Assembly: GCA_963747215.1 (NCBI GenBank)
Contig: CAVVET010000029.1
Coordinates: 320,115 to 384,114 of the forward strand
Length of the DNA: 64,000 bases
Direction of reading: 5' to 3'
From: an uncultured Acidimicrobiales bacterium
Lineage (GTDB): Bacteria > Actinomycetota > Acidimicrobiia > Acidimicrobiales > DATKAS01
Below, piece by piece: positions 28,154-32,111 of the stretch. The notes under the pieces are model-generated. The model saw only the letters and a list, made by a program, of their open reading frames with translations. It did not search any database and was not told where the DNA came from. A program made the translations under genes and the position numbers. Within the stretch, counting starts at the first letter, position 1. Every line of letters starts with the position of its first letter.

Positions 28154-28532
28154 GACGGTGAGTCGGCTGGGTGGTCGCGGCACGGCATTGCCCCGTGTCG
28201 AGGAAGGTCGGGACTCCACAGGGCAGGGTGCTGGCTAACGGCCAGTCGGGGCGACCCGCAGGAAAGTGCCACAGAGAACAGACCGCCGATGGGCCGGCCG
28301 GGAGACCGGACGGTCACAGGTAAGGGTGAAACGGTGCGGTAAGAGCGCACCAGCGCCCGGGGTGACCCGGGCGGCTCGGCAAACCCCACCCGGAGCAAGG
28401 CCAAGCAGGGGACGGTTGCCCGCTCGCACCTTCGGGTGCAGTCCCCAGGTGGGCCGCGCAGATGGATGGCCACCCAGGGCCGCTGGCAACAGCGACCTGG
28501 ACAGAATCCCGCCTACAGGCCGACTCACCGTC
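28154..28532 (+). ncRNA. rnpB: RNase P RNA, bacterial type A
   Basis: P1 pairing CGGUGAGUCGGC (28156-) with GCCGACUCACCG (-28530). Universal blocks GAGGAAGGUCGGGACUCCACAGGGCA, GGAAAGUGCCACAGAGAACAGACCGCC, GGUAAGGGUGAAACGGUGCGGUAAGAGCGCACCAG, GGCAAACCCCACCCGGAGCAAGGCCAAG, ACAGAAUCCCGCCUACAGGCCGAC. Ends are +/-5 nt. Confidence 0.9.
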
Positions 28533-28534
28533 AC
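28506..28534 (+). repeat. direct repeat copy 1 (attL-like), identical to the 3' terminal 27 nt of rnpB plus 2 nt
   Basis: ATCCCGCCTACAGGCCGACTCACCGTCAC, an exact 29/29 match to 32083-32111. Confidence 0.95.
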
Positions 28535-31500
28535 CACCAGCGGGAACCCAGCGTTCGTGTCTCTGACCTGCAGATTTGGTGCTCACTGGTTGTCGACCGT
28601 CCTCAACGTTTCTCATCGTTCTGAGGCCCGACTGAGGCCCACGGCCTTTGGTCGACGATGGATGCCCGCTCCCAAGAGCACCCTGTGATCGGCGCGCGTG
28701 CGGGCATACGGTTGCGGCGTGCGTTCGGGAGTACGTCGTCGGTGACGACCGAGAACGTGACGGTGTTGTTCACCGACATGGTGGAGTCGACCGCCCTCGC
28801 GTCGACGCTGGCGCCCAATGTCGCGGACGAGCTGCGTCGGGCGCATTTTGCGATCTTGCGTCAGGCGGTCGCGGAGGCGGGCGGCACCGAGGTGAAGCAT
28901 CTGGGTGACGGACTCATGGTCGTGTTCGGCGCCCCGTCGGCGGCGTTGTCGTGCGCGGTGGCGATGCAACAGGGCATCGACCGCGACAACCGGGGACGTG
29001 AGCGTCCGGTGGGGTTGCGGGTCGGGCTGAGCGGCGGCGAGGTCAGTCGAGAGGACGACGACTACTTCGGCGACCCGGTCGTCGAGGCGGCCCGGCTGTG
29101 CGCCTGCTGTGAGAGCGGGCAGGTCCTGGCCGCGGACATCGTGCGGTTGACGGCTGGGCGTCGCAGCCGACACGAGTGCCGTTCGCTCGGGGAGCTCACC
29201 TTGAAGGGCCTGCCCGGATCCGGTCGAGACCGTCGAGGTGCTGTGGCAACCTCCCGACCGGGCCGAAGCCGGGCCTGTTGTCCCGCTGCCTGGGCGTCTG
29301 GCGGTGCGTCCCGCAACGGGGGTGGTGGGCCGGGAGGCCGAGACGGCGGCGATGGTGGATGCGTACAAGCGCGTCGCTGAGGGCGAAGTCCGGGAGGTGT
29401 TCCTGGTCTCGGGTGAGGCCGGTCTCGGCAAGACCACGCTGGTCGCGGCGACGGCCCGGGCCGCGTTCGACGGCGGGGCGTGTGTGTTGTTCGGGCATTG
29501 CGAAGAGGACCTCGCGACGCCCTATCAGCTGTTCGCGGAGGCGCTCGGCCACTTCGTCATCCACGCCAGCGAGGAGCAGCTCGTCGCGCACGTCGACGCG
29601 CATGGTTCGGCGCTGGCCCGGCTGGTCCCGGCGCTTTCCCGCAGGCTGCCGGGCCTTCCGCCGTCGACGGCGACCGACGCTGACAGCGAGCGTTACCAGC
29701 TGTTCGCCGCGGTGGTGGGGCTGCTGGTCATGGCGTCGGAGCATCAGCCGGTCGTGGTCGTGCTGGAAGACCTGCAGTGGGCCGACAAGGCGAGCCTGCA
29801 GTTGCTCGGCCACGTGATCACGGCCGACCAGCCGATGCGGCTGCTGGTGCTCGGCACCTACCGCGACAGTGAGCTGTCACGCTCCCACCCGCTGCTCGAC
29901 ACACTCGCGGCCCTGCATCGACAGCACAGTGTCGTGCACATCGAGCTGACCGGACTCGACGACACCGCCGTCATGTCGCTCATGGAAGCCGCCGCCGGGC
30001 ACACCCTCGAAGACGCCGCCATACGTCTCGCCCATGCGGTGCAGCGCGAGACCGACGGCAACCCGTTCTTCGTGACCGAGGTGCTCCGTCACCTCGCCGA
30101 GACCGGGGCGATCTACCAAGATCCCACCGGCCGATGGGTGGCAGCCGACACCGTCGAGCAGATCGCCTTGCCCGCCAGCATCCGTGCGGTGATCGGCGCA
30201 CGCGTCGGGCGGCTGGGACCAGACGCCGAGCGGGTGTTGTCGCTCGCCGCGGTGATCGGCCGCGACTTCGACCTCGACGTGCTCGCCCGCGCCAGCCAAA
30301 CATCGGAAGACCAGCTGCTCGACATCCTCGACGCCGCCACCGCTGCGGCCCTGGTACGCGAACTCACCGACACACCCGGGCACTACAACTTCGCCCACGC
30401 CCTCATCCAACACACCCTCTATGAGGATCTCGGACTCACCCGGCAGGCCCGGGCGCACCGTCGAGTAGCCGAAGCCCTCGAAGACCTGTACGGCGACCGC
30501 CCCGGCGAACGGGTCGGCGAACTGGCCCGCCACTGGATCAACGCCACCCAACCCATCGACCTGGCCAAAGCCATCGACTACTCCCGCCAGGCCGCCGACG
30601 CCGCGCTCGGCGCCCTCGCCCCCGCCGACGCCCTCCGCTACTACACCCAGGCCCTCGACCTCTACGCCCAGACCGACCACCCCGATCCGACCCTGGGCAT
30701 CGACCTGGCCGTCGGGCTCGGCACCGCCCAACGCCAAACCGGAGACCCCGCCTTCCGCGACACGCTCCTCGACGCCGCCCGACGGGCCGCCGACCTCGGT
30801 GACACCGACCGTCTCGTCGCCGCCGCCCTGGCGAACTACCGGGGCCTCTTCTCGAACCGCTGGCAACATCGACGCCGACAAGGTCGAGATCCTGGAGATG
30901 GCCCTCGATCGGCTCTGCCCCAGACGACCCGCGACCGGGCGCTCGTGCTCGCGCACCCTGTGCGCGGAACTCACCTACGGGAGTCCCCTCGAGCGTCGCC
31001 AGGCGCTCGCCGACGAGGCCATCGCCATCGCCAGGTCCTCCGGCGACGACGCCACCATCGTGCGAGTCCTCACACACCGTCTGGAACCCGCTCGCCGTTC
31101 CGGCACTGCTCCAGCAGTCGTGGATTGGACGACCGAGGCTCTGGTTCGGGCCGAGCGGCTCGGCGACCCCGTCCTGCTGTTCTGGGCCGCGTGGAGTCGC
31201 GCCGGCACTGCCGCCCGCGCCCTGGACATCGACGAGATGGACCGCTGCTTGGAAATCATGGGGTCGCGCGCCGCGCAGCTCGACCAGCCCATGTTGAACT
31301 GGGTACACAGCTACGCGCGTGCCGTGCGAGCGCAGATCGCCGGGGACACCGACCAGGCCGAACAGTGGGCCACCGAAGGCACTCCAGATCGGCACCGACA
31401 GCGGCCAACCCGACGCCACCCTCTTCTACGGCCTCCAGCTCGGGGCCGTGAGCCTCCAACGCGGAACGTATGGCGAGCTGGCCCCACTCCTCGAGCAGAT

Positions 31501-32082
31501 GGCCGTCGACGCTCCCGACCTCGCCGGAGTGTTCGTCGCGGCGCTTGCGCTGGCCCATGTCGAAGCAGGCCGGATCGACGACGCTCGTCGCCTGCTGGAG
31601 CAGGCCGCTGCCGCCGACTTCGATGTTCCGCTCGACGGGACTGGCTCAGCACTCTGGCCTACGTACGCCGAGGTCGCCATCGCGTGCCGAGACCCGAAGT
31701 GTTCCCGGACGCTGTTCGACCGCCTCGCGCCCTGGGCCGATCAGGCGCCGTATCCGGGCCTAACAATTGATAGTCCCGTCAGCCACTACCTGGGCGGCCT
31801 CGCCACCGTCCTCGGCCGCTACGACGAAGCCGACACCTACTTCGCCCACGCCGCCGCGTTGAACGACCGAGCAAACGCCAAGTTCTTCGCCGCCCGCACC
31901 AACCTCTCCTGGGCGAAGATGCTCGCCGAACGCCACGCCCCCGGCGACAACGAACGGGCACGAGACCTTCTCACCAAAGCACACACCGCCGCAGCGGCTC
32001 ACGGATACGCCAGACATCGAACGACGCGCCGCCGAAGCACTCCAACACCTGGCTTGATTGCTCGCCGATTGCTGAGAGGCGT
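28535..32082 (+). mobile_element. 3.55-kb insert in the 3' end of rnpB bounded by 29-bp direct repeats (integrated-element remnant, no recombinase inside)
   Basis: Bounded by the two exact repeats. It contains only the cyclase-ATPase-TPR gene plus 123 nt of leader and 25 nt of trailer. Confidence 0.6.
28658..32057 (+). pseudogene. class III adenylate/guanylate cyclase - AAA/STAND ATPase - TPR protein (Rv0386-type but without a C-terminal HTH), multiply frame-shifted
   Basis: Cyclase domain VTVLFTDMVESTALAS...GTEVKHLGDGLMVVFG...LRVGLSGGEV...DYFGDPVVEAARL. ATPase VFLVSGEAGLGKTTLV, VVVVLEDLQWADKASL. Long TPR-like tail ending ...AAAHGYADIERRAAEALQHLA* at TGA 32055-32057. Frame changes at ~29215, ~30852, ~31378 and ~32012, plus probably 2-4 more between 30920 and 31130. 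Confidence 0.7.
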
Positions 32083-32111
32083 ATCCCGCCTACAGGCCGA
32101 CTCACCGTCAC
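32083..32111 (+). repeat. direct repeat copy 2 (att-like partial rnpB 3' end)
   Basis: An exact copy of 28506-28534. The flanks on both sides are unrelated to the rnpB flanks. Confidence 0.95.

Follow-up and report, generated by a model that had tools for sequence, protein, structure and literature searches.

RESULTS

An exact repeat of the rnpB 3' end brackets 3,548 bp

The window examined here is a 64,000-nucleotide stretch of contig CAVVET010000029.1 from an uncultured Acidimicrobiales bacterium, and the features of concern are its RNase P RNA gene, rnpB, and the DNA that lies between two copies of the 3' end of that gene. The gene is on the plus strand at positions 28159 to 28531 and is a full-length rnpB of bacterial type A, which matches Rfam model RF00010 with 239.3 bits (gathering score, 100; E = 1.3e-76) from model position 1 to 367 of 367 and without truncation. 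The P1/P2 pairs are intact in the Rfam alignment, and the gene is 98.7% identical to rnpB of a metagenome-assembled genome (MAG) contig, CAVTEI010000003.1 (L119; L-numbers designate comparison loci, which are genome tiles or viral contigs related to the window). Judged from its sequence, rnpB of the window is apparently functional. No tRNA genes were found in the window.

The repeat is the 29-mer ATCCCGCCTACAGGCCGACTCACCGTCAC, which occurs at positions 28506 to 28534 (copy 1) and 32083 to 32111 (copy 2), both times on the plus strand. These are the only two copies in the whole window: no extra copy was found at 3 or fewer mismatches and no third copy at 7 mismatches. In 100 dinucleotide-preserving shuffles there were 0 chance matches of this length. 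Comparison of 80 nt on either side of each copy found no relation between the flanks, and the rest of rnpB has no second copy in the window. The initial annotation of this DNA had reported such a duplication, with unrelated flanks and with copy 1 at the end of rnpB, and in these respects it was correct. RF00010 sets the end of the gene at 28531, and copy 1, which on this evidence has the position of an attL-type core, consists of the final 26 nt of the modeled gene and 3 nt past it.

By comparison with Escherichia coli M1 RNA, we take copy 1 to cover the 3' strands of helices P4, P2, and P1 and a 4-nt tail, so that the repeat block presumably begins one base 5' of the P4 3' strand and continues through the P2 and P1 3' strands. 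On the same comparison, the P4 3' strand is presumably UCCCGCCU, which would pair with AGG(U)CGGGA inside the 5' strand GAGGAAGGUCGGGAC; we take this pairing to include three compensatory changes relative to E. coli. Copy 2, in contrast to copy 1, has no rnpB around it. It is an orphan rnpB 3' fragment in the position of an attR-type core, and the left edge of the identity block at this copy is (A)TCCCGCC. The DNA between the copies (positions 28535 to 32082) is 3,548 bp long. The junction of this DNA with copy 2 is also present in an independent assembly, L052, in which 45 nt of the left flank are identical, and copy 2 is therefore not an artifact of a single assembly.

Alignment of the right flanks of rnpB defines a plus-strand spacer of 138 nt (positions 28535 to 28672) between copy 1 and the conserved block that follows, versus ~12 to 30 nt in relatives. 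Within it, at positions 28562 to 28579, is a hairpin with a T-run (TCTGACCTGCAGATTTGG, loop CTGACC), which is found 10 to 15 nt after rnpB in most of the Acidimicrobiia relatives (17 loci aligned) and which, from its sequence and position, is probably the rnpB terminator. The hairpin of the window sits ~21 nt further from rnpB than those of the relatives. We had considered CTGACC as a possible integrase site, but the motif is present downstream of rnpB with or without an element, which makes a terminator hairpin likelier.

rnpB is an integration target in Acidimicrobiia

A 20-mer of the repeat, used to scan one genome per species, matched at least 119 tiles, nearly all of them from MAGs of Acidimicrobiia. 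Among the tiles listed, to which the counts below refer, 95 contain a full rnpB and ~20 contain an isolated 3' fragment alone; L024 and L073 also contain a second copy. An Rfam check found full rnpB in 8 of 8 tested tiles of the first kind and in 0 of 10 fragment-only tiles. Where rnpB and a fragment lie on the same contig, the distance between them is 3.4 kb (L024), 5.5 kb (L105/L086), 7.0 kb (L073), 7.7 kb (L119/L032), 9.5 kb (L120/L080), or ~30 kb (L093/L076). Differences in the 3' tail are seen in L032 and L086. Two orphan fragments are present in a single tile in L039 and in L055, and L052 has an additional, degenerate one. This third copy in L052 (positions 6956 to 6984 of the reverse complement) has 7 mismatches and lies 4 kb past the equivalent of copy 2; its sequence and place indicate a putative older island in the same array.

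A tyrosine integrase gene, detected with an integrase profile, starts within 1 kb downstream of rnpB at 15 of 95 loci and within 1 kb upstream at 0 of 76, so that an integrase, which the window lacks, is present beside the RNA gene at the same rnpB site in some relatives. The Pfam Phage_integrase and SAM-like N-terminal domains were confirmed for 8 of the rnpB-associated integrases. Two clades can be distinguished among these proteins, and identity between the clades is only ~25%. In clade A (L001, L065, L021, and L082), the integrase is encoded on the rnpB strand and the identity block begins with CAGAAYCCCGCC, while in clade B (L002, L024, L077, L073, and others) the integrase is often on the opposite strand and abuts rnpB, and the block begins with YCCCGCC. 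The block boundary in the window, (A)TCCCGCC, is of the clade B type, and the same left boundary is common to the island pairs L024, L073, L105/L086, L093/L076, and L048/L069, some of which have an integrase. The gene orders predicted from the attP sites described below are those observed: rnpB is followed by a same-strand integrase (clade A) in L065, L082, and L079 and by an opposite-strand integrase (clade B) in L024 and L077. L007 and L120 have integrases that are cut or frameshifted, and the best score of each is against the clade B integrase of L002.

A further observation concerns the left side of the orphan fragments. A conserved motif, (C)AGGTCA(C/G), is found at a fixed spacing (~19 to 24 nt) to the left of the fragments, at the right ends of islands, in L076, L080, L069, L039, L047, L061, L072, L103, L086, L042, L040, and others, and it may be a binding site for the integrase or an accessory protein.

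attP-like sites in viral contigs

When viral contigs were scanned with 22 nt of the repeat, two matched, L001 and L002, and neither contig segment has rnpB. L001 is part of a 40-kb phage contig and matches the rnpB 3' end of the window over 32 nt. Its match is adjoined by a helix-turn-helix/GIY-YIG gene and a tyrosine integrase gene, with a RecE-like exonuclease, a repressor, and an HNH protein encoded on the other side. L002 (IMGVR_UViG_3300027749_004963, positions 1 to 8186; 8.2 kb) encodes a major head protein, a small terminase, a tyrosine integrase, an excisionase, a repressor, and a primase/helicase, and its rnpB-like segment, at positions 2714 to 2735, is 54 nt from the end of the integrase gene. 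From their sequence and their place beside an integrase gene, we read the segments in L001 and L002 as attP sites. Phage genes lie to both sides of these segments. A matching attP beside int in a free element was thus found for the rnpB site as such, not for the insert of the window. The rnpB 3' end had no matches in GenBank phages and only two weak chance matches in PLSDB plasmids.

The gene set of L002 resembles those of capsid-forming phage satellites, and several rnpB islands are of similar size (3.4 to 9.5 kb). To our knowledge, capsid-forming phage satellites have not been described for Acidimicrobiia.

Based on the integrases of the relatives, the orphan fragments, and the attP-like sites in viral contigs, we conclude that rnpB is a site-specific integration target in Acidimicrobiia and that it is used by integrase-bearing elements. 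The initial annotation had proposed rnpB as an integration site from the window alone, and the relatives bear this out. Integration keeps rnpB at full length, orphan fragments accumulate on its 3' side only, and both arrays of inserts and their decay occur.

A second viral scan, with the consensus P4 3' strand (ACAGAACCCGGCTTA), gave 109 matches, 48 of them inside full rnpB genes; 109 is about the number expected by chance if the viral contigs are assumed to total ~60 Gb, which is a rough guess. Among these contigs are several leads. In L224 (66% G+C) an integrase gene lies 35 nt downstream of a full rnpB; in L289 one follows an rnpB that is truncated by the start of the contig; and in L310 (24% G+C), L295, and L236 an integrase directly adjoins an orphan rnpB 3' end. 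We regard these five as candidate rnpB-targeting elements outside Acidimicrobiia. The viral contigs L231 and L298 also have rnpB followed by an integrase, but with a tRNA gene in between, and for this reason we did not accept them as rnpB integrations. The attP-like segment of L295 (positions 4092 to 4135) gives a 44-nt Rfam match that spans model positions 1 to 367, and from its sequence it appears to hold both strands of a P1-like hairpin (CAGTCAGCC...GGCGACTG), beyond the 3' strand alone.

Contents of the insert and its surroundings

The insert contains one cargo gene only. This gene, on the plus strand at positions 28658 to 32057, resembles regulators that combine a class III adenylate/guanylate cyclase, an AAA_16 (STAND-type) ATPase, and TPR repeats, and it is broken over at least 4 reading frames, with the Pfam matches to Guanylate_cyc, AAA_16, and TPR on separate open reading frame (ORF) pieces. 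The three domains are accordingly not found in one intact frame of ~900 amino acids, which is what would mark a cyclase-AAA_16-TPR regulator. More than 1,200 homologues of ~900 amino acids were found, the named sources being Acidimicrobiales and Ilumatobacteraceae. Among the long homologues, P0002 is 935 amino acids in one frame, with AAA_16 as its only recorded Pfam match, and P0003 is 900 amino acids with cyclase and AAA_16 domains.

A GC3 (third-codon-position G+C) frame plot was too noisy for counting frameshifts and was replaced by a three-way alignment. Over 2.9 kb of cargo, the window has 12 private 1-nt indels, and the two other genomes have 11 and 18. The conserved DNA upstream, compared between two genomes, has ~8 indels of 1 to 2 nt in 7.5 kb, which is ~0.5 per kb per genome. 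Based on the sequence, we take the cargo gene to be a real pseudogene, with the caveat that the genomes are metagenome assemblies and that an FGGY kinase gene upstream in the window is split as well.

As the initial annotation had stated, the insert holds no recombinase: Pfam, tblastn, and a six-frame hidden Markov model (HMM) search found no integrase or recombinase in its 3,548 bp, including the 138-nt spacer. The same annotation had placed a recombinase remnant just outside copy 2, and this part did not stand up. The 0.68 kb to the right of copy 2 (positions 32112 to 32790) contains six ORF fragments, none of which has a Pfam match at E ≤ 1, and there is no similarity to an integrase anywhere in the 64 kb. 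In the close relative L203 this stretch is absent, and an unrelated 220 nt is found instead.

Further to the right, on the plus strand at positions 32791 to 34294, are an enoyl-CoA hydratase (ECH) gene and a glyoxalase-like gene (Pfam ECH_1 and Glyoxalase_3), which are followed by methyltransferase, thioesterase, and response-regulator genes. A 2.35-kb segment from 32068 to 34413, which includes copy 2 and the ECH and glyoxalase genes, is missing from L047 and L202, and its ECH and glyoxalase-like genes are present in L203. The left flank (positions 24296 to 28053, plus strand; Pfam and tblastn) is conserved and contains genes for an FGGY sugar kinase, a cupredoxin, and two ferritin-like proteins. 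When the window proteins were compared with all loci by tblastn, synteny across Acidimicrobiia was kept upstream of rnpB, and the downstream side was variable.

The FGGY-family kinase gene is split in two frames (positions 24296 to 25207 and 25230 to 26129), and the window differs here from L119 by a 1-nt indel at ~25199; in L203, too, the homologue is called as two genes (481 and 124 amino acids). Whether the split reflects a true frameshift or a mistake in assembly, it affects the trust that can be placed in single-base indels of the window.

Occupied and empty sites in relatives

The closest genome is CAVTEI010000003.1 (L119/L032), whose left flank is 89.9% identical to the window over 7.5 kb. 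It matches the window to the final base of copy 1 and then has a 7.74-kb island that is absent from the window (island X) and an orphan fragment, after which the sequence continues as it does past copy 1 in the window (93% identity). L047 has a different island (island Y) at the same rnpB junction, with an orphan fragment after it. The point at which both islands are inserted is, in the window, the exact junction of rnpB with the DNA next to it, and the window is therefore an empty site for islands X and Y. Serial integration with decay, as suggested in the initial annotation, is observed directly in the relatives, which have further islands at this junction and, in some cases, two or three orphan fragments. 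No integrase was found in island X. Its genes are those for a GmrSD_C-type nuclease, a monooxygenase fragment, a paralogous AAA-TPR protein, and a desaturase-like protein. The protein with the GmrSD_C (DUF1524) nuclease domain (L032, positions 309 to 818; also L203, positions 8470 to 8979) is, from its domain, possibly the product of an anti-phage defense gene carried as island cargo.

Nucleotide identity defines a conserved 3.4-kb cargo block in the window (positions 28673 to 32067, plus strand), which behaves as a unit: it is found again in other genomes and contexts with its ends unchanged, and there are six arrangements in all, that of the window included. Identity to the window is 95.7% in L047, 94.9% in L202, 93.2% in L203, 87.5% in L052, and 81% in L204. 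The order in the window is rnpB, block, fragment, and ECH gene. In L052 the block is followed by the fragment, with the identical 45-nt junction, and then by unrelated DNA and the degenerate third fragment. In L119/L032 the order is island X, fragment, and block. L047 has the fragment, the block, and then DNA like that of the window from 34414 onward, without copy 2 or the ECH and glyoxalase genes, and L202, whose contig begins inside the block, continues in the same way and lacks the same features. In L203, whose left side is 99% identical to L119, rnpB is followed by 2.25 kb, the block, 220 nt, and the ECH gene, and only one core is present in 21.8 kb. Because L052, the most distant (88%), has the block-to-fragment junction, we take this junction to be ancestral and the copies without it to be later deletions.

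The last arrangement has a different RNA gene as its neighbor. In L204 an 81%-identical copy of the block, with a single 935-amino-acid frame and AAA_16 as its only recorded Pfam match, lies beside a frameshifted tyrosine integrase gene and a tRNA-Leu(GAG) gene. All of these features lie within positions 9437 to 14642, and the integrase gene (13303 to 14491, minus strand) abuts the tRNA gene (14556 to 14642). No tRNA-Leu fragment bounding the L204 island was found. The place of this homologue beside an integrase in a tRNA-Leu island shows that the cargo block travels with islands, and islands with different RNA-gene targets thus contain one and the same cargo module.

In L203, moreover, the DNA between the glyoxalase-like gene and the methyltransferase gene contains, at positions 15114 to 15964, fragments of the 5' end of the cargo gene and 360 nt of island X. 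These pieces are evidence either of a rearrangement or of another decayed island on the downstream side of the array.

DISCUSSION

Origin of the repeat pair

We interpret the two 29-mers as attL and attR cores left by site-specific integration of a tyrosine-integrase element into the 3' end of rnpB, and the DNA between them as an old, decayed remnant of that element. We put the probability of this reading at roughly three in four. The attL/attR-like geometry, which had also been pointed out in the initial annotation, is supported by the exact repeat together with the intact rnpB, since the 3' end of an RNA gene and a downstream orphan fragment form a direct repeat in the window, as expected of such an event, and only the integrase inside the insert is lacking.

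The steps may be reconstructed as follows. Temperate phages, small capsid-encoding satellite-like elements, and other islands of Acidimicrobiia would carry an attP that copies the final 26 to 32 nt of rnpB (the P4, P2, and P1 3' strands), often with a terminator hairpin after it. Recombination would swap the 3' end of the gene for the copy of the element, by which rnpB would stay intact (attL), and the original rnpB 3' end would become an orphan fragment at the distal end of the insert (attR). New elements could then enter the intact rnpB and push older inserts outward, so that arrays would be built and would subsequently decay. In the window, the 3,548-bp insert would have lost its integrase and its cargo gene would have decayed, with the two cores alone still perfect.

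If so, the insert arrived by the integrase route and later lost its integrase, and the present 3' end of rnpB would be the copy brought by the element. Strand exchange presumably took place inside the shared block. From the sequences of L105/L086, it would lie to the left of the first attL/attR difference, just after CACCGT. The elements may also supply the hairpin and T-run that follow rnpB.

Several observations weigh against this interpretation. No genome was found in which rnpB is joined directly to the DNA right of copy 2, which would be the empty site of the insert of the window, and a search of metagenome contigs for this pattern (the rnpB 3' end fused to the right flank of the window) gave 0 matches. 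Related metagenome loci sought by way of the ECH gene were at closest 80% identical in nucleotide sequence, were not syntenic, and had no rnpB fragment upstream. The comparison of occupied and empty sites therefore gave a divided answer, in that the window is empty for islands X and Y and no empty site was found for its own insert. The close relatives L047, L202, and L203 carry the cargo block without copy 2, which indicates that the history of the insert is less simple than a single insertion followed by decay. Searches of the whole 64-kb window with the rnpB-associated integrases (tblastn and six-frame HMM) found no integrase or remnant of one, and the agent of insertion in the window is thus known only by inference. 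The base composition of the island is no different from that of its surroundings. Finally, the comparison genomes are all metagenome assemblies, some possibly from long reads, in which single-base indels and some of the structural differences may be assembly errors, and the FGGY kinase gene of the window is itself split across two frames.

One other possible explanation is that the insert is a still-mobile island without an integrase, like the cis-mobilizable elements (CIMEs), whose att cores would be recombined in trans by the integrase of a phage or satellite, and that it may excise, move, or be co-packaged. The insert has the makeup of such an element, since it lies between two putative att cores, so named from their identity, and has no integrase of its own. 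The cores are identical at 29 of 29 positions despite the ~12 frameshifts in the cargo between them, which would fit continued use; nevertheless, copy 1 is fixed by selection on rnpB, and a neutral 29-nt copy can stay unchanged by chance at such divergence. Island X also has no integrase, yet shows a precise presence/absence difference at the att site, at least 5 contexts contain the cargo block as a discrete unit, at 81 to 96% identity, and the attP of phage L001 is identical to rnpB of the window over 32 nt. On the other side, neither an empty site nor an excised or circular form was found. Many elements of the clade B type have the (C)AGGTCA(C/G) motif at their right end, ~20 nt from the core, and it is missing from the left flank of copy 2. 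An element whose cargo is a pseudogene, moreover, offers nothing for which it would be retained. We consider continued mobility unlikely.

Slightly less likely still is the explanation that the cyclase block is an ordinary chromosomal neighbor of rnpB and that copy 2 belongs to the variable segment from 32068 to 34413, having come from the island array of another strain or from a rearrangement of the array. This would account for the absence of that segment as one piece in L047 and L202, with a breakpoint just 15 nt to the left of copy 2, and for L203, in which the cargo is followed by the ECH gene with no rnpB fragment and in which rearranged pieces of cargo and island X lie between the glyoxalase and methyltransferase genes. 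In the relatives that bear islands X and Y, moreover, the cargo block acts as a fixed right flank of attB. However, L052 has the identical 45-nt junction of the cargo right end with copy 2 but a wholly different right flank, and copy 2 therefore travels with the cargo block and not with the ECH gene. In addition, an island entering rnpB leaves an orphan fragment on its own right side, not its left, and the cargo block is found in the tRNA-Leu island of L204 as well.

Chance or an assembly artifact as the origin of the second copy, which might be suspected in a window that may stem from a metagenome assembly and has a kinase gene that looks frameshifted (~25199 to 25230), can be dismissed in view of the shuffles, the same junction in the independent assembly L052, and orphan fragments of the same kind, with consistent boundaries, in ~20 other genomes among the tiles listed.

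Relation to known integration systems

Tyrosine integrases are reported to insert phages and genomic islands into tRNA and tmRNA (ssrA) genes at the 3' end. The rnpB case is like these in that a structured RNA gene has its 3' part as the direct repeat and is restored by the copy that the element carries, an orphan fragment is found at the far end, the integrase is beside the RNA gene, attP is beside int in the free element, and tandem arrays form and decay. It is unlike them in its target, which is the ~370-nt gene of the RNase P ribozyme, and in that the part that is swapped includes the 3' strand of P4, in the catalytic core, together with those of P2 and P1. Integration into rnpB is thus the tRNA/tmRNA type of integration applied to another structured RNA gene, and it is the rnpB target itself that appears to be new.

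The full-text literature that we searched contains no report of rnpB as an attachment site; its coverage is incomplete, and an earlier mention elsewhere is possible. All co-occurrences of rnpB with integration topics in this literature concern rnpB as a phylogenetic or quantitative PCR marker. Islander searches tRNA and tmRNA genes only, and TIGER/Islander files other sites as protein-coding or intergenic (PMC12424338), so that rnpB insertions are not counted as a class of RNA-gene insertions.

The nearest published parallel that we found is phage phiEf11, which integrates into ffs, the gene for 4.5S/signal recognition particle RNA, of Enterococcus faecalis (Stevens et al. 2025, PMC12540744). 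In that paper tRNA/tmRNA and csRNA genes are given as the known noncoding RNA targets and ffs as a new one, and rnpB is not mentioned as a target (PMC12540744). Like the rnpB elements, phiEf11 in ffs and the pneumococcal prophages in csRNA genes have a housekeeping or regulatory small-RNA gene other than a tRNA gene as attB, and phiEf11 has a 27-nt identity block and an attP close to int. The rnpB case differs from that of ffs in the RNA gene and in the host phylum, and also in that it involves two divergent integrase clades, several types of element, and a whole class of bacteria.

Two further systems resemble parts of what we observed. CIMEs and accretion arrays at att sites are found beside ICESt1/ICESt3 in Streptococcus thermophilus, and tandem islands are found at ssrA in Dehalococcoides. 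Like CIMEs, the insert of the window is flanked by att-like cores, has no integrase, and is in series with other inserts at the same site; unlike them, it is known from sequence alone, and it carries a pseudogene as cargo, which suggests a relic and not an element that is being maintained. Capsid-forming phage-inducible chromosomal islands (cf-PICIs) are phage satellites, and the 8.2-kb L002, with its integrase, excisionase, repressor, primase/helicase, small terminase, and major head protein, invites comparison with them. In contrast to cf-PICIs, L002 is a separate contig that is known from its genes alone, and the island in the window has none of the genes of L002.

Implications

The result for the window itself is modest, since the bracketed DNA is read as a dead remnant. 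The wider pattern matters more. Integration sites govern where foreign DNA gathers and which hosts an element can enter, and an essential ribozyme gene as a recurrent target adds a target class. Because island-finding tools look for tRNA and tmRNA genes, insertions into rnpB go unrecognized as RNA-gene targets. An orphan rnpB 3' fragment is a simple marker for islands, prophages, and satellites in the mostly uncultured Acidimicrobiia, and the new integrase/att pairs could become genetic tools for this group.

On balance, we think it probable that rnpB is an unlisted target class across Acidimicrobiia, used by at least two divergent integrase clades and with signs in unrelated bacteria, and that the elements replace the P4, P2, and P1 3' strands and the terminator with copies of their own. 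If this is true, the elements would have to track lineage-specific compensatory changes in the core helices of the ribozyme, and they could also spread or homogenize such changes. This suggests that part of the sequence history of rnpB can be element driven.

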